Below are positions 1 through 5,795 of a stretch of DNA of 5,851 nt, piece by piece. Under the pieces are notes generated by a model. It had not been told where the DNA came from. It ran no database searches and worked only from the letters and a program-made list of their open reading frames with translations. Position 1 is the first letter of the stretch. Each line of letters starts with the position of its first letter. Source of the stretch: a virus; IMG/VR virus record IMGVR_UViG_3300045988_000121, positions 1-5,851 of that record; one strand, written 5' to 3'. Made by a program: the position numbers and the translations under genes.

Positions 1-36
1 TTCCAGAAATGCACGCAAGCCGAACACGATTCAATC
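1..36. repeat. Terminal direct repeat (left copy), identical to 5816-5851. It marks a circular genome that was linearised with a 36-nt overlap.
   Basis: I compared ttccagaaatgcacgcaagccgaacacgattcaatc at 1-36 with 5816-5851 base by base and found them identical. The reading frame of the capsid ORF is continuous across the junction. Confidence 0.95.
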
Positions 37-1646
37 GAGACCAGACGATTCTAACCACGTTCGATGCAGGCAAACTCATTCCATTCTATGTGGACGAAGT
101 CCTGCCGGGTGACACATTCAGCGTGGACACAGCGGCCATTATCCGCATGACAACGCCGAAATATCCGGTAATGGACGATGCATTCATTGATTTTTACTAT
201 TTCTTCTGTCCAAACCGAATTCTATGGGACGATTTCAAGTACTTCATGGGAGAAGTAGAAAGTACACCATGGATGCCCACAAAAACGTACAAAGTACCAC
301 AACTCTTACTAAAAAATAAAGATAAATTTATAATCCCATACGAGAAAAGCATACTCGACTATATGGGAGTGCCAACAAAAAGCATTAAAACGCCAGAAAC
401 GGAAGCAAGCATCAACGCACTACCTATCAGAGCATATGTAAAAATCTGGAACGAATTCTTCAGAGATGAAAACGTAGACAATGCGGCGACAATTATAACA
501 ACAAGTGAAGATGTACAATACAAAGACGGGTCAGATGAAAGCATACCGTTAGAACAAGTAATCAAAGAAGCATACAAAGGAGGAAGATGCCTACCAGTAA
601 ACAAATTCCACGACTACTTCACATCCTGTCTCCCATACCCTCAGCGTGGGCCAGATGTGACAATCCCAATGAGTGGTCTATATCCAGTAGAACTAAGAGA
701 TTTGGCAGGGCATAAACCGCAAGGCACAATTTTCATGAACGGAACTGGAACAATGGCAACAGGCACAATCGACGGCGGCGGCGGCGGTGCGGCAACGATA
801 ACAGGTGCAACAAAGTCAGGTGGAAACACAGCAATCCAGGGAAATTTATACGTAAATCTTGCAGGAGACTTAACCGCAACAGGTGCACAAGCAACAATCA
901 ACCAGCTGAGACAGGCTATCAGCGTGCAGCAGTACTATGAAGCACTGGCACGTGGAGGCAGTCGATACCGCGAACAAGTACACGCACTGTGGGATGTAAC
1001 TATCAGCGACAAAACCGTACAGATTCCAGAATATCTGGGAGGAGGACGCTATCACGTCAACATCAATCAAATCATCCAGACAAGCGGACAGCAGACAAAC
1101 ACCGATACGCCAATTGGCGAAACAGGCGCAATGTCTGTAACACCTATCAATGAAAGCTCCTTTACAAAGAGCTTTGAAGAGCACGGATTTGTAATCGGTG
1201 TATGTTGTGTAAGACATAACAGAAGTTATCAGCAGGGACTTGAACGTTTTTGGAGCAGAAAAGACAGGCTGGATTACTATGTACCACAGTTTGCAAACAT
1301 CGGTGAACAGCCTGTAAAAAAGAAAGAAATCATGTTAACCGGCGAAGCAAGCGATGAAGAAACATTCGGATATCAAGAAGCATGGGCGGACTACCGCATG
1401 AAACCGAACCGCGTATCTGGATTAATGCGAAGCAATGCCACCGGCACACTTGACTTCTGGCATTATGCAGACAACTACAAAACCGTACCAACACTTTCAC
1501 AGGAATGGATGTCAGAAGGCAAAAAGGAGATTGCACGGACTTTGATTGTGCAGAATGAACCACAGTTCTTCGGCGCAATCAGAGTAGCAAACAAAACAAC
1601 AAGACGAATGCCGCTTTACAGCGTGCCGGGTCTGTATAAACTGTAA
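1..1646 (+). CDS. VP1: Major capsid protein VP1 (phiX174 F homologue). It is 5'-truncated by the linearisation; the true start is ATG 5782, giving about 559 aa.
   Basis: The frame is open from the window edge. The ORF track starts at ATG 9, but the same frame continues from 5782 (MNRNNERHFLQVPE then MHASRTRFNRDQ...). Gokushovirus capsid hallmarks are present: TTFDAGKLIPFYVDEVLPGDTF near the N-terminus and INQLRQA...ALARGGSRYREQVHALWDV mid-protein. The length is typical for VP1. Confidence 0.95.
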   Translation, partial: PEMHASRTRFNRDQTILTTFDAGKLIPFYVDEVLPGDTFSVDTAAIIRMTTPKYPVMDDAFIDFYYFFCPNRILWDDFKYFMGEVESTPWMPTKTYKVPQLLLKNKDKFIIPYEKSILDYMGVPTKSIKTPETEASINALPIRAYVKIWNEFFRDENVDNAATIITTSEDVQYKDGSDESIPLEQVIKEAYKGGRCLPVNKFHDYFTSCLPYPQRGPDVTIPMSGLYPVELRDLAGHKPQGTIFMNGTGTMATGTIDGGGGGAATITGATKSGGNTAIQGNLYVNLAGDLTATGAQATINQLRQAISVQQYYEALARGGSRYREQVHALWDVTISDKTVQIPEYLGGGRYHVNINQIIQTSGQQTNTDTPIGETGAMSVTPINESSFTKSFEEHGFVIGVCCVRHNRSYQQGLERFWSRKDRLDYYVPQFANIGEQPVKKKEIMLTGEASDEETFGYQEAWADYRMKPNRVSGLMRSNATGTLDFWHYADNYKTVPTLSQEWMSEGKKEIARTLIVQNEPQFFGAIRVANKTTRRMPLYSVPGLYKL

Positions 1647-1684: not shown

Positions 1685-2572
1685 ATGTCACTATTAGGAG
1701 CACTAGGAACAATCGGAAGCATAGCAGGAACAGTTGGCACAGTAGCAAACGCAGTAGGACAAATTGGAAACGCATTCGGTGCATGGGGACAAGTAGGACA
1801 AAGCCAAAGCCAAGGCGGAAGCACACAAAGCGGCGGCGGACAAAGCCAAAGCGGCAGCAAGTCCGGGACAAACGTAGACCAAGTAGAAAAGTGGTTGCAA
1901 GGAGCATACGGATACCAGAACAACGAAGGAGTGAAACAAGGCCAATTCAACCAGAGATCAATGCTACAGCAGATGGGCTATAACACACTGGGGGCGATCA
2001 TGCAGGGTGTCTATAACCACATCGAAAACCAGACTGCAATGAATTTTAACAGCACAGAAGCACTTGCAAACCGTGAATGGCAAGAAAGAATGTCAAATAC
2101 AGCTTATCAGAGAGCAGTAAAAGACATGAGAGAAGCAGGGTTAAACCCGATTCTAGCATTCCAGAACGGCGGTGCAAGTACGCCCGGTGGAAGCACAGCA
2201 ACAATCTCAGGTGCAAGCATGGGTGCACCGTCCTCAAGTGCGTTAGGAGTAAGTAGAGCATCCGGGTTTGTGCCAAACGCATACGAAAGTGAAAGCTGGT
2301 CACAAAGCGACTGGTACAACGCCGCGCAAAGCTGGAATCAGATGCTTAGCAGTACAGGCATGACACCACTAGGATTGCAGAAAACGCTATCAGAAATCGG
2401 AGAAGGTACAGGAAACTTAATCGACAAAACCGTTGGAGCAGGAAGAAAAGCCGCAGAAAGAGGAAAAACAAATGTAAACAAAGCAATAGAAAACGTAAGA
2501 AATGGGCATGGAATCGACAACATCACAGGCAATAGAAATAGAGCCGGTGGTGGAGCAGGAAGGAACAAATAA
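1685..2572 (+). CDS. VP2: Minor capsid / DNA pilot protein VP2 (295 aa)
   Basis: It sits immediately after VP1. It has a hydrophobic Gly/Ala-rich N-terminus (MSLLGALGTIGSIAGTVGTVANAVGQIG), a Q/S/G low-complexity linker, and the conserved gokushovirus VP2 core REWQERMSNTAYQRAVKDMREAGLNPILAF. No alternative in-frame start exists between the upstream stop (1637-1639) and 1685. Confidence 0.9.
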   Translation: MSLLGALGTIGSIAGTVGTVANAVGQIGNAFGAWGQVGQSQSQGGSTQSGGGQSQSGSKSGTNVDQVEKWLQGAYGYQNNEGVKQGQFNQRSMLQQMGYNTLGAIMQGVYNHIENQTAMNFNSTEALANREWQERMSNTAYQRAVKDMREAGLNPILAFQNGGASTPGGSTATISGASMGAPSSSALGVSRASGFVPNAYESESWSQSDWYNAAQSWNQMLSSTGMTPLGLQKTLSEIGEGTGNLIDKTVGAGRKAAERGKTNVNKAIENVRNGHGIDNITGNRNRAGGGAGRNK

Positions 2573-2575
2573 AAA

Positions 2576-3598
2576 ATGAGCTGTTATAAACCGTTAATTC
2601 GGATATACAGCCCAGAAAACAGAAAAATCAGCGGGCAAGTGTATACGCTTGCCCGCTTTTCTGAAAGAATGGGCAAAAAAGTTAAATATGAAGATTTGAT
2701 GTACAATCCAAAAGTAATGCTGATACCATGCGGGCAATGCATCGGATGTAGAATAAGGCAGCGCGAGGACTGGACAACAAGAATAGAACTGGAAGCACGA
2801 GAATATCCAAAAGAACAAGTCTGGTTCATTACACTAACTTATGATGACGACCATGTACCGGGCATGATAGTAAAAACCGGTGAAATCATGCGCAAAGTGC
2901 AATACGTCTGGAAGCCGGGAGAGAAAGCGCCAGAGAGCGTACAAACGCTAATGTATCCAGACATTCAAAAATTTTTAAAACGTCTCAGGAAAGCTTACAG
3001 GGGCAAATTACGCTATTTCTGTGCTGGAGAGTACGGAGAACAAACAGCAAGACCACACTATCACATGATTTTGTACGGATGGGAGCCAACAGACCTGAAA
3101 CACCTGTATAAAATCCAACACAACGGATACTTTACAAGTGAATGGCTGTGCAAGCTGTGGGGAATGGGTCAAATACAAATAGCGCAAGCAGTACCCGAAA
3201 CTTACAGATATGTTGCAGGATACGTAACAAAAAAAATGTATGAAATAGACGGTAAAAAAGCAAACGCATACTATGAACTAGGGCAACAAAAACCATTTGC
3301 ATGTATGTCACTTAAGCCGGGACTAGGCGATGCTTACTATCAAGAACACAAAGAAGAAATCTGGAGGCAAGGATACATCCAATGCACAAACGGAAAGAAG
3401 GCGCAAATTCCGCGATATTATGAAAAAATGATGGAAACAGAAAATCCTGAAAGGCTTTGGAGAATCAAAAGAAACAGACAAGCCGCAGCAATTGCAGAAA
3501 ACCGGCTAAAGTATGAAAATGCAGACTTTGAAACAAATCTTAAAACCAAAGAAAGAGTTGTTAAAAAATCCGTAAAGCTCAAAAAAGGTGGACTTTAA
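2576..3598 (+). CDS. VP4: Replication initiation protein VP4 (HUH rolling-circle endonuclease, phiX174 A homologue, 340 aa)
   Basis: Motifs occur in the canonical order: CGQCIGCR, FITLTYDD (motif 1, nt 2825-2842), RPHYHMILYG (HUH motif, HYH at nt 3056-3064), and YRYVAGYVTKK with two Tyr spaced Y-x3-Y (nt 3209-3223), as in the phiX174 A catalytic tyrosines. Confidence 0.95.
   Translation: MSCYKPLIRIYSPENRKISGQVYTLARFSERMGKKVKYEDLMYNPKVMLIPCGQCIGCRIRQREDWTTRIELEAREYPKEQVWFITLTYDDDHVPGMIVKTGEIMRKVQYVWKPGEKAPESVQTLMYPDIQKFLKRLRKAYRGKLRYFCAGEYGEQTARPHYHMILYGWEPTDLKHLYKIQHNGYFTSEWLCKLWGMGQIQIAQAVPETYRYVAGYVTKKMYEIDGKKANAYYELGQQKPFACMSLKPGLGDAYYQEHKEEIWRQGYIQCTNGKKAQIPRYYEKMMETENPERLWRIKRNRQAAAIAENRLKYENADFETNLKTKERVVKKSVKLKKGGL
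2630..2661 (+). terminator. Perfect 10-bp hairpin plus T-tract inside the 5' end of VP4, 58 nt after the VP2 stop. It is a candidate leaky terminator or attenuator.
   Basis: AGCGGGCAAG (2630-2639) pairs with CTTGCCCGCT (2648-2657). The 8-nt loop is TGTATACG, followed by TTTC. The element encodes ISGQVYTLARFS of VP4. Confidence 0.4.
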
Positions 3599-3616
3599 AA
3601 GTTTTCGGTGTCACCT

Positions 3617-3653
3617 AGCCCAGTACCTATCAAGTAAGGTACTGGGCTTATTT
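3617..3653 (+). terminator. Rho-independent-type terminator hairpin after VP4
   Basis: A 12-bp perfect stem, AGCCCAGTACCT (3617-3628) with AGGTACTGGGCT (3637-3648), has the loop ATCAAGTA and is followed by TATTT. It starts 19 nt after the VP4 stop codon. Confidence 0.65.
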
Positions 3654-3697
3654 GCGCGCGCACGCGCGCGCGTAGACGCACGCACATGCACGCGCAT
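3653..3697. repeat. Two 22-nt perfectly alternating pyrimidine/purine (CG/CA) tracts. The region is Z-DNA-prone and hairpin-prone.
   Basis: 3653-3674 (TGCGCGCGCACGCGCGCGCGTA) and 3676-3697 (ACGCACGCACATGCACGCGCAT) each alternate Y/R without interruption and are separated by the single base G3675. Palindromes lie inside: TGCGCGCGCA (3653-3662) and ACGCGCGCGCGT (3662-3673). TGCGCG (3653-3658) is complementary to CGCGCA (3691-3696). Confidence 0.85.
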
Positions 3698-3736
3698 TTA
3701 TTATATTAACTTGTTGTAGACGTAGTAGTAGAGCAA

Positions 3737-3900
3737 GTGGAAAAGTTGAAAGTGATAAAAATTACTCGTTATCACGTGAGAAACAGGAAAAATTCTCAGT
3801 TAAAAATCTTGTTAAAAACTTGTTAAATTGTTGAAACACTCTATTGTGCTAAAGTTTAACAATGTTAAAATGTTGAAAACTATGTGGAAAAAGTTGAAAA
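3737..3900. repeat. Iteron-like array of GTT(G/A)AAA motifs, bracketed by a 16/17-nt direct repeat, in an AT-rich noncoding region
   Basis: GTGGAAAAGTTGAAA (3737-3751) matches GTGGAAAAAGTTGAAA (3884-3899). GTT(G/A)AA(A/T) starts at 3745, 3799, 3811, 3822, 3830, 3864, 3872 and 3893. One inverted pair, TTTAAC-AAT-GTTAAA, lies at 3855-3869. Tandem CTTGTTAAAAA / CTTGTTAAATT occurs at 3808-3829 with an 11-nt period. Confidence 0.7.
3752..3775. repeat. 7-bp inverted repeat GTGATAA-N10-TTATCAC, a candidate protein-binding site or ssDNA hairpin
   Basis: GTGATAA (3752-3758) is the reverse complement of TTATCAC (3769-3775). It is followed by the palindrome CACGTG (3773-3778). Confidence 0.5.
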
Positions 3901-3912
3901 ATCCAAAAAAGA

Positions 3913-3946
3913 TTGACTTTTTTCCAAAAATATAATAAAGTATAAT
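3913..3946 (+). promoter_or_regulatory. Sigma70-type promoter-like region upstream of the accessory gene block
   Basis: TTGACT lies at 3913-3918. Two perfect TATAAT boxes lie at 3931-3936 and 3941-3946, but their spacers are 12 and 22 nt, which is non-canonical. At the canonical 17-nt spacing the -10 would be TAAAGT (3936-3941, 4/6 match). The A-tract array upstream could act as an UP element. Confidence 0.4.
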
Positions 3947-3968
3947 CACAGAAAGGAAGGTGCTAAAA

Positions 3969-4151
3969 ATGAAACACAACTACGAACTAAAAGCATTAAA
4001 AGCCAACAAAGCAGTGGAAACAGTACTAAGAATAAACGCGGAACCCAAAGACGCAAAACGAAAAGCAAAGAGTTACACAAACAAACATGAAGGAATCTAC
4101 AAACTATACAAAGTTGAAGAAGTGGAAATATATTTCGCTGAAAAAGAATAA
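3969..4151 (+). CDS. Hypothetical small basic protein (60 aa), first gene of the accessory block
   Basis: ATG 3969 is preceded by SD GAAAGGAAGG (3951-3960, 8-nt spacing). The track's earlier start at 3960 lies inside the SD. I recognise no motif. The protein is Lys-rich and soluble-looking. Confidence 0.5.
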   Translation: MKHNYELKALKANKAVETVLRINAEPKDAKRKAKSYTNKHEGIYKLYKVEEVEIYFAEKE

Positions 4152-4284
4152 AAGCACCTACGGTGGACCTACCGAAGTTTCAAAAGTTGCTACGCAACCC
4201 TTGAAAATTCGGCAGGTGTATGATACACTAAGACAAAGAGGCGGCGAACCTCAGAACCTTGAAAAAAAAATAGGAGAAGAAGTC

Positions 4285-4674
4285 ATGATTGTATCATACA
4301 TTGCAGAAAAAGAAGGAAACGTAGAAGTTAAAAGATATTTCCGGGTAAAAGAGTTTGCATGTAAAGATGGAACGCCGGTCGTCTTTATAGACGACCACCT
4401 AGTAACAATTCTGTCAATCCTAAGGACCAAAATCGGAAGGCCGGTTATCATCAACAGCGGATACAGAACGCCGGAGCACAACAAGCGAGTAGGCGGCGCA
4501 AAGTACAGCTACCACATGCGCGGCATGGCGGCAGATATCAAAGTCGAAGGAATGAAAGCAAAAGAGCTGGCAAAAAAACTCGACGAGATAGTACCGAATG
4601 AATGCGGCATCATCGTATATAACAACTGGGTGCACTTTGATGTTCGCCACAGCAAATACAGAAAGGGGGTGTAA
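4285..4674 (+). CDS. Zinc D,D- or L,D-peptidase of the LAS / Peptidase M15 (M15A, YcbK-like) fold. It is a putative peptidoglycan hydrolase (endolysin-like), 129 aa.
   Basis: The family signature is present: SGYRTPEHNKRVGGAKYSYHMRGMAADI (SGYR...N...S-x-H-x2-G-x-A-x-D) plus WVHFDV. This gives zinc ligands H77, D84 and H117 in H-x6-D ... H-x-D geometry. I prefer ATG 4285, which has SD AGGAG (4272-4276), over the track's ATG 4087. That earlier start has no SD and overlaps the preceding ORF. Confidence 0.85.
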   Translation: MIVSYIAEKEGNVEVKRYFRVKEFACKDGTPVVFIDDHLVTILSILRTKIGRPVIINSGYRTPEHNKRVGGAKYSYHMRGMAADIKVEGMKAKELAKKLDEIVPNECGIIVYNNWVHFDVRHSKYRKGV

Positions 4675-4678
4675 ACAA

Positions 4679-4795
4679 ATGGCTCTTATCAGTATCAAAG
4701 ACGTCAAGCAGGCTATCAAGATTATGATGCAGATTCTGGAAAAGCTGGACGAGATTTATCACGCCCTGCACGACCAACCGAACGAAAAGGAGTAA
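4679..4795 (+). CDS. Hypothetical 38-aa amphipathic helical peptide, tightly coupled to the peptidase gene
   Basis: ATG 4679 lies 4 nt after the peptidase stop, with SD GGGGGT (4665-4670). The sequence is MALISIKDVKQAIKIMMQILEKLDEIYHALHDQPNEKE. The track's longer start at 4598 lies inside the peptidase gene and has no SD. Confidence 0.45.
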   Translation: MALISIKDVKQAIKIMMQILEKLDEIYHALHDQPNEKE

Positions 4796-4801
4796 ACGAA
4801 A

Positions 4802-5029
4802 ATGATTGCAAAGTCATGGAACATCAGAGACCAGACTGAAAAAGACTTAACAGAACTGCTGAAAAAAAAATACGCTGAAATCGAGAGCGATTACAAGCTT
4901 CTCCGAAAAATAAGCAACGTGGAAACCGCAAAAAAAATGATAGACGAAATCTGGCAATGCAAAAGCTTTGCCAACGCCATCGAACTTGAACTAATCAGAA
5001 GGGGGTACTACAATGGCACGGCATCGTAA
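4802..5029 (+). CDS. Hypothetical 75-aa helical protein
   Basis: ATG 4802 has SD AAGGAG (4787-4792, 9-nt spacing). The protein is charged and helical-looking, and I recognise no motif. Confidence 0.5.
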   Translation: MIAKSWNIRDQTEKDLTELLKKKYAEIESDYKLLRKISNVETAKKMIDEIWQCKSFANAIELELIRRGYYNGTAS

Positions 5030-5135
5030 AGTCATGCGCGGTGCAAAAGACAAGCGCATGTTTAACGTAACGGCGCGAAAAACCAAAAGCATCAACCTGA
5101 GCCAGAAACCAATGCGCGGCGGTATTCGGCTCTAA
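5013..5135 (+). CDS. Small arginine/lysine-rich DNA-binding protein (gokushovirus ORF8-like, functional analogue of phiX174 J), 40 aa
   Basis: This ORF is not in the track because it is too short. ATG 5013 has SD GAAGGGGGT (4998-5006). The translation is MARHRKVMRGAKDKRMFNVTARKTKSINLSQKPMRGGIRL. The MARxR start and the C-terminal PMRGGIRL match the pattern I recall for Chlamydia-phage-type ORF8 peptides (...MRGGIRF). It overlaps the 3' end of the 75-aa ORF by 17 nt. Confidence 0.75.
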   Translation: MARHRKVMRGAKDKRMFNVTARKTKSINLSQKPMRGGIRL

Positions 5136-5152: not shown

Positions 5153-5392
5153 ATGGAACATCTGTACTATGGCATCTGGGATAACGTAGCAAAATGCTAC
5201 GCATGGGTCGGTGAAAACAAAAACGACAACACTTTCCAGCGAATGTGCAACATCATGGAAAAAGATAAAAGCACGTTCATCGGGCAGTCCCCAACCGATT
5301 ACGTGGGTCACAGGCTGGCAAAGTTTGAAGACGAAACCGGTACGTTCGAGAACGACAAAGAAAAAGTCTGGGAGGGCAAGCCACATGAATAA
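5153..5392 (+). CDS. VP5: Nonstructural protein VP5 (gokushovirus ORF5-like, 79 aa)
   Basis: SD AAGGAG (5140-5145) lies upstream. The pattern YGIWDNVAKCY...NDNTFQR...DYVGHRLAKFEDETGTFEN fits the VP5 family consensus as I recall it (F/Y-x-I/V-x-D-x-K/V-A ... R-x-F ... L-x-x-G/K-F-D/E-D-x-T-G). Its position just upstream of VP3 is typical. Confidence 0.65.
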   Translation: MEHLYYGIWDNVAKCYAWVGENKNDNTFQRMCNIMEKDKSTFIGQSPTDYVGHRLAKFEDETGTFENDKEKVWEGKPHE

Positions 5393-5795
5393 AAGGTATG
5401 AAGAAGGGCGAGAGCCCTTCTTTTCTGATTCAGGCGAAACGCAGCGTAAACAGTACGTATGGGCAAAAGACGAAGACGGGAAAGAATACCTGCAGGAAAC
5501 AGAAAGCATAGACATTCAGGCAGAAATTGAAAGCTATGCAGATGAGTGCGATATTAAAAACATCGTCCGTAAAGCATCGTTTGACCCACAGTTTATGCAG
5601 AGCCTTTCACAGGGAGCGCTGGACGGCACAGAAGTAGATATTACAGAATGGCCACAGAACATTCACGAATATCACAAAATGGTAGCAACAGCACAGGCAA
5701 ACGCACTGACACTGCAGAAAATGCAGGAAGAAGCGCCGAAGGAAGCACCGAAGGAAGCACCGAAGGAAGGAGACATGAAGAATGAACAGAAATAA
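5385..5795 (+). CDS. VP3: Internal scaffolding protein VP3 (136 aa)
   Basis: I prefer ATG 5385, which has SD GGAGG (5371-5375) and an ATGAATAA overlap with the VP5 stop. The track's start at 5211 lies inside VP5. ADECDIKNIVRK and the downstream D-x-T-E-W-P ... H-x-x-V-A-T-A-Q resemble the conserved gokushovirus VP3 core (..ECDINxIMKK.. / ..GD......A..). Confidence 0.8.
   Translation: MNKRYEEGREPFFSDSGETQRKQYVWAKDEDGKEYLQETESIDIQAEIESYADECDIKNIVRKASFDPQFMQSLSQGALDGTEVDITEWPQNIHEYHKMVATAQANALTLQKMQEEAPKEAPKEAPKEGDMKNEQK
5400..5430 (+). terminator. Hairpin with a GNRA loop plus T-rich tail, 9 nt after the VP5 stop and inside the first 40 nt of VP3. It is a candidate leaky terminator.
   Basis: AAGAAGGGC (5401-5409) pairs with GCCCTTCTT (5414-5422). 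The loop is GAGA, followed by TTCTGATT. A G5400-U5423 wobble could extend the stem. Confidence 0.45.
5729..5768 (+). repeat. In-frame 12-nt tandem repeat (3.3 copies) encoding (EAPK)3 at the VP3 C-terminus
   Basis: The copies are GAAGCGCCGAAG, GAAGCACCGAAG and GAAGCACCGAAG, then GAAG. Each unit junction creates a GAAGGAAG SD-like string upstream of the VP1 start. Confidence 0.9.

Follow-up and report, generated by a model that had tools for sequence, protein, structure and literature searches.

Peptidases of the Pfam family M15_3 were described by Roux et al. (2012; PMC3394797) in Gokushovirinae and Alpavirinae of the human gut, where an endolysin role was proposed for them and horizontal acquisition was shown, the gokushovirus copies being tied to Faecalibacterium and other Clostridiales. 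Kirchberger et al. (2022; PMC9239249) reported that peptidases are one of very few recurrent accessory genes, spread over many microvirus families. In another microvirus, Ebor, the purified wall hydrolase Gp7 degrades peptidoglycan, and the authors regard it as the first peptidoglycan-degrading enzyme of an ssDNA phage to be verified by experiment (PMC11980548). The lysis of gokushoviruses was stated to be uncharacterised in PMC7062461, in agreement with what an initial annotation of the present genome, made from the letters alone, had said.

Peptidases of the family studied here, their occurrence in gut gokushoviruses, their horizontal origin and the role proposed for them were all published in 2012, and the gene is annotated in public records; the new genome is another member of a gene class already described since then. 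What is added here is that the enzyme is fixed in a large gut clade with a fully conserved active site, and that it is inherited without the holin-like transmembrane (TM) ORFs usual beside its homologues in tailed phages and on long bacterial contigs, with no plus-strand frame offering a substitute.

Genome organization

The window, meaning the whole stretch of DNA that was analysed (5851 nt), is a complete-looking gokushovirus genome with every gene on the plus strand. Gokushovirus-type Microviridae were recognised by a VP1-VP5 set encoded on one strand of a genome of about 4.5-6.5 kb, and the window carries VP1 (Phage_F), the VP2 pilot protein, the VP3 scaffold, the VP4 replication initiator and VP5 on a single strand. 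Its nucleotide identity to Microviridae/Gokushovirinae records is about 79%, and the base composition of the plus strand is 38% A and 18% T. The main features are as follows.

9-1646, plus strand: VP1, Phage_F (E=4.5e-129)
1685-2572, plus strand: VP2 pilot protein, PHROG 8742 'pilot protein'
2576-3598, plus strand: VP4 replication initiator
3599-3959: gap without a recognised gene, AT-rich toward its 3' part
3960-4151, plus strand: ORF63
4272-4276, plus strand: Shine-Dalgarno of the peptidase gene (AGGAG), 8 nt from the ATG, read from the sequence
4285-4674, plus strand: peptidase, Peptidase_M15_3 / LAS zinc peptidase, putative lysis enzyme (129 aa, 14.8 kDa, pI 9.5)
4679-4795, plus strand: ORF38 (38 aa)
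4802-5029, plus strand: ORF75
5013-5135, plus strand: basic 40-aa protein, pI 12.0, taken as J/ORF8-like
5153-5392, plus strand: VP5
about 5385-5795, plus strand: VP3

The mechanically called VP3 ORF opens with a GTG at 5211 and overlaps VP5 (5211-5795, plus strand), but its PHROG match starts only at residue 59, so the true start is probably the ATG at 5385. Scans of the whole 5851-nt genome gave no match in Rfam, and PADLOC gave none on the genome either. Scanning for promoters and terminators was not informative, with 14 promoter-like sites where 8.1 were expected and no excess of terminator-like sites over chance.

A perfect 12-bp hairpin (stem AGCCCAGTACCT, loop ATCAAGTA) lies on the plus strand 19 nt past the VP4 stop, and 3' of it comes an alternating purine-pyrimidine tract of GC and AC steps (3650-3689, plus strand); the DNA fold of 3600-3700 has a z-score of -4.66. 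Perfect hairpins of at least 9 bp lie downstream of VP4 in 70/77 relatives, mostly with the same stem and loop, and arm variants still pair perfectly, and the purine-pyrimidine tract is present in 63 of the 77. Hairpin and tract together (3617-3689) are a candidate origin or terminator element.

A predicted LAS peptidase with an intact active site

The initial annotation had read a 129-aa protein with three active-site motifs from the peptidase ORF, and both the translation and the placing of the motifs held. A longer in-frame ORF of 195 aa opens at 4087 and was considered as the gene or as an export extension, but its 66 additional residues had no tblastn match in any of 82 related loci (0/82) and the homologues are 129-130 aa long, so that 4285 is taken as the real start; the extension from 4087 onward also has no hydrophobic stretch, which argues against an export role for it. 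The 186-aa database entry P0001, which is 100% identical, looks like a gene-caller start artefact.

Profile searches and structure prediction agree on the family. Pfam PF08291 (Peptidase_M15_3) matches with E=4.9e-25 and 88.2 bits, against a cut-off of 23.2 bits, over profile positions 2-108 of 108, and Peptidase_M15_2/DUF882 (PF05951) matches more weakly (30.7 bits). The sole NCBIfam match was MepK, NF053624 (E=2.3e-11), at 43.9 bits against the equivalog cut-off of 185 bits, which makes it a related domain and no member of that family. In a sequence search of the PDB the sole match was 1LBU (E=2.9e-4 with the single sequence, 1.4e-8 with a profile). With an AlphaFold2 model computed from an alignment of 99 sequences (mean pLDDT 95.9, pTM 0.89), 1LBU again ranked first among Foldseek matches to the PDB (TMq 0.63), followed by Hedgehog N-domains, VanY, VanXYc, Ply500, LysB4, LysECD7, ChiX and LdcB; no fold outside the LAS group scored meaningfully in that search. 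The fold claimed in the initial annotation is thus confirmed at the level of profile and model: 4285-4674 is predicted to encode a LAS-fold Peptidase_M15_3 protein. Its endolysin-like nature, claimed there as well, is borne out by PHROG 894 'endolysin' (E=2.3e-41).

Affiliation with the VanX/VanY enzymes (M15 subfamilies B and D) was not indicated. No VanY Pfam match was found at E<=0.01, the likeness to VanY and VanXYc is at fold level only (TMq 0.43-0.47), and the C-terminal motif reads N-W-V-H117-F-D119, not ExxH, the catalytic motif of VanX. As for the bond that the enzyme would cleave, DD-carboxy/endopeptidase, LD-endopeptidase and L-Ala-D-Glu peptidase activities are alike possible from the sequence.

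The active site is made up of three motifs, the first of which continues to N66.

4456-4467, plus strand: S58-G-Y-R61, aligning to 1LBU, with the Arg substrate-binding by analogy with 1LBU
4507-4536, plus strand: S75-x-H77-x-x-G80-x-A82-x-D84, aligning to 1LBU SRHMYGHAAD, with H77 and D84 as predicted zinc ligands
4633-4647, plus strand: H117-F-D119-V-R121, C-terminal active-site motif, with V116 before H117

These contain the H-x6-D within SxHxxGxAxD and the C-terminal His that mark PF08291 and MEROPS M15 subfamily A. Twelve residues (S58, G59, R61, N66, S75, H77, G80, A82, D84, H117, D119 and R121) are invariant in 126/126 related microvirus copies; H117, D119 and R121 are kept in the tailed-phage set as well, and position 60 is Y in 125/126. 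Nucleotide entropy over the 126 copies was 75.5, 54.1 and 134.7 at codon positions 1, 2 and 3, with variation mostly at the third position, a pattern that points to purifying selection on an enzyme that looks active.

Distribution and origin of the gene

The initial annotation had held such an enzyme to be atypical in microviruses and at most sporadically noted, a view contradicted by Roux et al. (2012), by Kirchberger et al. (2022), by GenBank labels and by the counts reported here. Among the 80 nearest relatives, retrieved by the capsid protein alone, 78 have the peptidase, including all those of complete size (71/71), so the gene is fixed and not sporadic in this gut gokushovirus clade. GenBank relatives with 65-74% protein identity are labelled 'peptidase M15' or 'similar to peptidase'. 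In the protein database there are 1413 peptidase clusters, the majority on contigs about 5.7 kb long, and IMG/VR has at least 416 peptidase loci. The initial annotation had also said that its novelty would fall away if such peptidases, together with a known export partner, were routine in the clade; routine presence is borne out, whereas no export partner is known.

In a neighbour-joining tree the peptidases of the clade form one group, consistent with a single ancestral acquisition, and the sister-group relationships of that group are mixed. Faecalibacterium phage Toutatis, Vibrio phages and long, mostly clostridial, bacterial contigs carry homologues with 40-50% identity, and the nearest cellular and phage homologues come mostly from Clostridia. 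A set of genome-contig loci (L093-L170, among them the short MAG contigs L094, L096 and L098) was considered as a source of binned microviruses for host assignment and set aside, since all of them lack a homologue of VP1 and so provide no direct link to a host.

Route to the cell wall

The initial annotation had reported no holin, signal peptide, SAR segment or amurin-like ORF, and this stood in a hydropathy scan with 19-residue Kyte-Doolittle windows (KD19) over the three plus-strand frames, overprinted frames included. The scan found no TM-length ORF anywhere on the plus strand of the genome. In the peptidase itself the first 40 residues contain no uncharged run of 10 or more, neither a Tat motif nor a lipobox was found, and in the AlphaFold2 model residues 2-6 form a beta-strand, with a mean pLDDT of 96 over residues 1-10. 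The protein therefore has none of the N-terminal signals (signal peptide, SAR, Tat, lipobox) of a signal- or SAR-endolysin, no small TM protein lies beside it as in a canonical holin-endolysin cassette, and no plus-strand frame, overprinted ones included, has a TM-like ORF that could encode an amurin of the phiX174 E type. The highest plus-strand value comes from the pilot protein.

1685-1792, plus strand: VP2 N-terminal segment, residues 1-36, the sole plus-strand TM-like segment (KD19 1.54)

This segment is uncharged and Gly-rich (MSLLGALGTIGSIAGTVGTVANAVGQIGNAFGAWGQ), and 21 consecutive residues in it are small or hydrophobic. The VP2 N-terminus of relatives differs in sequence (LLKLLPSLMQGLSMLTGII) but is similarly hydrophobic.

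Among 71 related genomes, plus-strand open frames with KD19 of at least 1.8 occurred in just 3. The homologues elsewhere served as a control. The enzymes of Toutatis and of a Vibrio phage are flanked by proteins with KD19 of 1.9-2.7, and in 23/29 long bacterial contigs, mostly from Clostridia, a same-strand TM ORF (KD19 >=1.8) lies within 1 kb of the homologue, the TM ORFs beside homologues reaching 1.8-3.3. A TM-adjacent position is typical for an endolysin. Because the homologues usually adjoin TM ORFs and the microvirus copies do not, the microvirus lineage seems to have gained the enzyme but not the holin.

Two kinds of overprinted frame were seen in relatives and are not in the genome studied here. 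One relative that carries the peptidase (L006), among the 3 just mentioned, has at 111-260 (plus strand) an ORF of 49 aa that overlaps the 5' end of VP1 in another frame (MLVWLLLLSLSWIIFIWRLF..., KD19 2.83, with a basic tail) and looks like a lysis protein of the phiX174 E type. In about 25 relatives among L004-L081 a further overprinted frame (LLHGHLFLLCSVPSAVGTL, KD19 1.3-1.9) stays open for 26-92 codons; its distance of about 1.5-1.6 kb on the upstream side from the N-terminal segment of VP2 places it within VP1, and it is probably a by-product of conserved VP1 sequence.

Proposed role in lysis

The reading that we favour, with a probability of roughly 0.6, is that a horizontally acquired endolysin-type enzyme serves as the lysis enzyme of the clade and reaches the wall by a non-canonical route. 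An ancestor of the gut gokushovirus clade would have taken the gene, without its holin, from the lysis cassette of a tailed phage or prophage, probably of Clostridia, and every complete clade genome would have retained it since. The protein would be made in the cytoplasm as a soluble, globular enzyme without an export signal, and late in infection its zinc-dependent activity would cut stem peptides or cross-links of the host wall and release the T=1 virions. Access to the wall could be gained through membrane damage by another viral product, by a host route or through late leakage, and the candidate for a viral agent of membrane damage would be the VP2 N-terminus, the sole TM-like element.

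The lysis-enzyme reading is favoured by the family and fold, by an active site kept in 126/126 copies, by fixation in 71/71 genomes of complete size, by the monophyly of the clade copies and by the endolysin position of the homologues. Roux et al. (2012; PMC3394797) made the same functional proposal and found the same Firmicutes affinity. Two considerations stand against a simple version of it. Because the peptidase is soluble and has no export signal, access to the wall needs something beyond a canonical holin, and with no holin, signal, SAR, Tat or lipobox the step that joins enzyme and substrate is missing. Furthermore, related gokushoviruses with every other gene have no peptidase and also no recognisable lysis gene, so the peptidase may be accessory, assisting lysis rather than forming the whole system.

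The missing export step would be explained across the clade if the enzyme acted from within the cytoplasm, destroying D-Ala-D-Ala, UDP-MurNAc-pentapeptide or lipid II at the inner face of the membrane, so that wall synthesis fails and the growing cell lyses; this is the logic of the protein antibiotics of other small phages (E, A2 and LysM), but carried out by catalysis. The nearest solved relatives, 1LBU (a muramoyl-pentapeptide carboxypeptidase), VanY and VanXYc, act on D-Ala-D-Ala termini, and VanX, a cytoplasmic enzyme tied to the same fold group through the VanXYc match, depletes D-Ala-D-Ala and lyses E. coli without being exported (Sohya 2014, as summarised in PMC11514776). Such a mode of action is nonetheless unlikely here. 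Tailed-phage and prophage enzymes that adjoin holin-like ORFs share 40-50% identity with the microvirus enzyme, and since all of its invariant residues are common to those enzymes there is no sign of a change of substrate. Endolysins of the peptidase and amidase types, T7 lysozyme among them, can moreover usually build up in the cytoplasm without lysis.

Small genes flanking the peptidase

A viral partner without a TM segment, encoded by ORF38, ORF75 or ORF63 and acting as an export chaperone or membrane-active peptide, could also supply the missing step; it would be comparable to mycobacteriophage Ms6 Gp1, a chaperone. Two features of ORF38 favour such a partner, its amphipathic helix and its position, with a start 4 nt past the peptidase stop here and 1-4 nt past it in most relatives.

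4664-4673, plus strand: ORF38 Shine-Dalgarno, AAGGGGGTGT here and GAAAGGGGGT in most relatives, within the last codons and stop of the peptidase gene

Because this site sits in the last codons and stop of the peptidase gene, ORF38 appears to be translationally coupled to it. ORF38 (MALISIKDVKQAIKIMMQILEKLDEIYHALHDQPNEKE) occurs in 80/80 capsid relatives with a median identity of 89%, versus 74% for VP1, and has an entropy of 12.5, 5.3 and 31.9 at the three codon positions, synonymous changes exceeding non-synonymous ones in its own frame alone. These patterns indicate that it is a real protein-coding gene, albeit one that nearly all GenBank records leave without annotation. The predicted product is an acidic (net charge -2) amphipathic helix in which heptads repeat regularly and which lacks a TM segment.

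The distribution of ORF38 speaks against a dedicated partnership, however. Eight gokushoviruses whose VP1 is 45-52% identical (MG945157, MG945136, MG945423, KT264799, KT264798, MG945391, MG945135 and MT135258; L083-L090) form a sister lineage of the gut gokushoviruses with genomes of 5.2-5.5 kb that hold VP1-VP5, ORF8, ORF38 and an ORF75-like gene. A search for M15 homologues in these eight found none, yet ORF38 is retained there with 66-76% identity, immediately ahead of ORF8-VP5-VP3 and after a different gene. Their slot between VP4 and ORF38 contains no TM ORF and no recognisable enzyme, just small hydrophilic ORFs that include a Cys-rich one. The idea that ORF38 is dedicated to the peptidase was rejected because of its presence in these eight genomes, and its distribution identifies it as a clade-core gene that is not peptidase-specific. 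Its acidic character and coiled-coil heptads are also unlike those of membrane-lytic peptides. ORF75 is present in 76/80 capsid relatives, which favours it as a partner, whereas ORF63 is found in only 7/80, and none of the three proteins had a match in Pfam, NCBIfam, PADLOC or PHROGs. We consider a partner of this kind quite improbable, and the novel-partner lysis system that the initial annotation had suggested gains no support, as the sole tightly linked conserved neighbour, ORF38, is also found in peptidase-less genomes.

By eye, ORF75 and a 68-75-aa ORF of the eight peptidase-less genomes seem to share a ...TVEEAK.IVEEIYK...-like motif. The ORF75-like ORF lies upstream of ORF38 in those genomes and ORF75 lies downstream of it here, a change of order that may reflect a small rearrangement around the insertion point of the peptidase.

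Non-lytic and antisense readings

A non-lytic role, in which the enzyme is carried with the virion and opens the wall locally at DNA entry or remodels it in some other way, would be plausible if the host were a thick-walled Firmicute, and the closest homologues are indeed mostly from Clostridia; traces of Ebor Gp7 were detected in virions (PMC11980548). We nevertheless hold this to be very unlikely: the tailed-phage homologues adjoin holin-like ORFs, as expected of endolysins, the sister gokushoviruses have the same virion genes without the enzyme, and the peptidase has no evident structural link to VP1 or VP2.

All 40 of the top hydrophobic windows, and all strongly hydrophobic ORFs, lie on the minus strand, as expected of a plus strand that is A-rich and T-poor. 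An antisense TM ORF opposite the peptidase gene (4420-4719) is the most hydrophobic ORF of the genome, and Roux et al. (2012) noted a complementary-strand ORF next to the peptidase in one microvirus, but the hydrophobicity of 4420-4719 is expected from the plus-strand composition and the equivalent span has at least one internal stop in 107/124 relatives, so this ORF was rejected as a composition artefact with a negligible chance of being a lysis gene.

Significance

Holin-free access to the wall is a question general to microvirus peptidases and not specific to one genome. That the whole clade lyses by a soluble cytoplasmic LAS peptidase without a permeabilising partner, either through precursor destruction or with the Gly-rich VP2 N-terminus as a conduit, seems doubtful to us; if true, partner-free cytoplasmic lysis or a VP2 conduit would amount to a way of lysing the host that is not known from any phage. 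Few human-gut phages are as abundant as the gut gokushoviruses, and we know of no cultured member of the present gokushovirus clade. The small enzyme is a tractable entry point to their lysis, and its use as a compact lysin could be tried on gut Clostridia.

Comparison with known systems

Protein E of phiX174 and other amurins address the same problem, lysis by a phage too small for a full cassette, but they are small membrane proteins without enzymatic activity, often encoded in overprinted frames, and act by inhibiting MraY, MurA or MurJ, whereas the present genome encodes an enzyme and no TM ORF. Closer in kind is Gp7 of the Rhodobacter microvirus Ebor, a wall hydrolase of similar size (146 aa) with an HHpred match to 6SSC_A; Ebor belongs to a different subfamily ('Tainavirinae') and encodes a 45-aa predicted membrane protein, Gp1, that is absent here (PMC11980548).

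Two bacterial enzymes share the domain. The L,D-endopeptidase MepK/YcbK of E. coli has a related catalytic domain (NF053624, Peptidase_M15_2/DUF882) and is exported by its own signal, unlike the microvirus protein, which has none. The zinc D-Ala-D-Ala carboxypeptidase of Streptomyces albus G (1LBU), the founding M15A/LAS enzyme, aligns across the SxHxxGxAxD motif, but it is bacterial, carries an additional domain at its N-terminus (213 aa) and shares only 22% identity with the peptidase, so its bond specificity is not transferable.

The M15_3 endolysins of tailed phages are nearer still, with 44-50% identity for Faecalibacterium phage FP_Toutatis (AUV56799) and Vibrio phage 1.105.O (AUR87864). 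They are likewise single globular domains with no signal peptide, a basic pI and the same invariant active-site residues; they differ in being flanked by TM proteins, as the microvirus enzyme is not, and the Toutatis enzyme has a loop of about 8 residues before the WVH motif that the microvirus copies are without.

The closest counterparts are the M15_3 peptidases of gut Gokushovirinae and Alpavirinae (Roux et al., 2012; PMC3394797), which have the same Pfam family, size, proposed endolysin role and Firmicutes affinity. Those of Human gut gokushovirus (KX513868, KX513876 and KX513877, 'peptidase M15') and of pig-faeces Microviridae (MG945xxx, 'similar to peptidase') are 65-74% identical to the present enzyme, and the gut gokushovirus peptidases occupy the same slot between VP4 and the block of small ORFs, VP5 and VP3, matching the present locus in every substantive respect.
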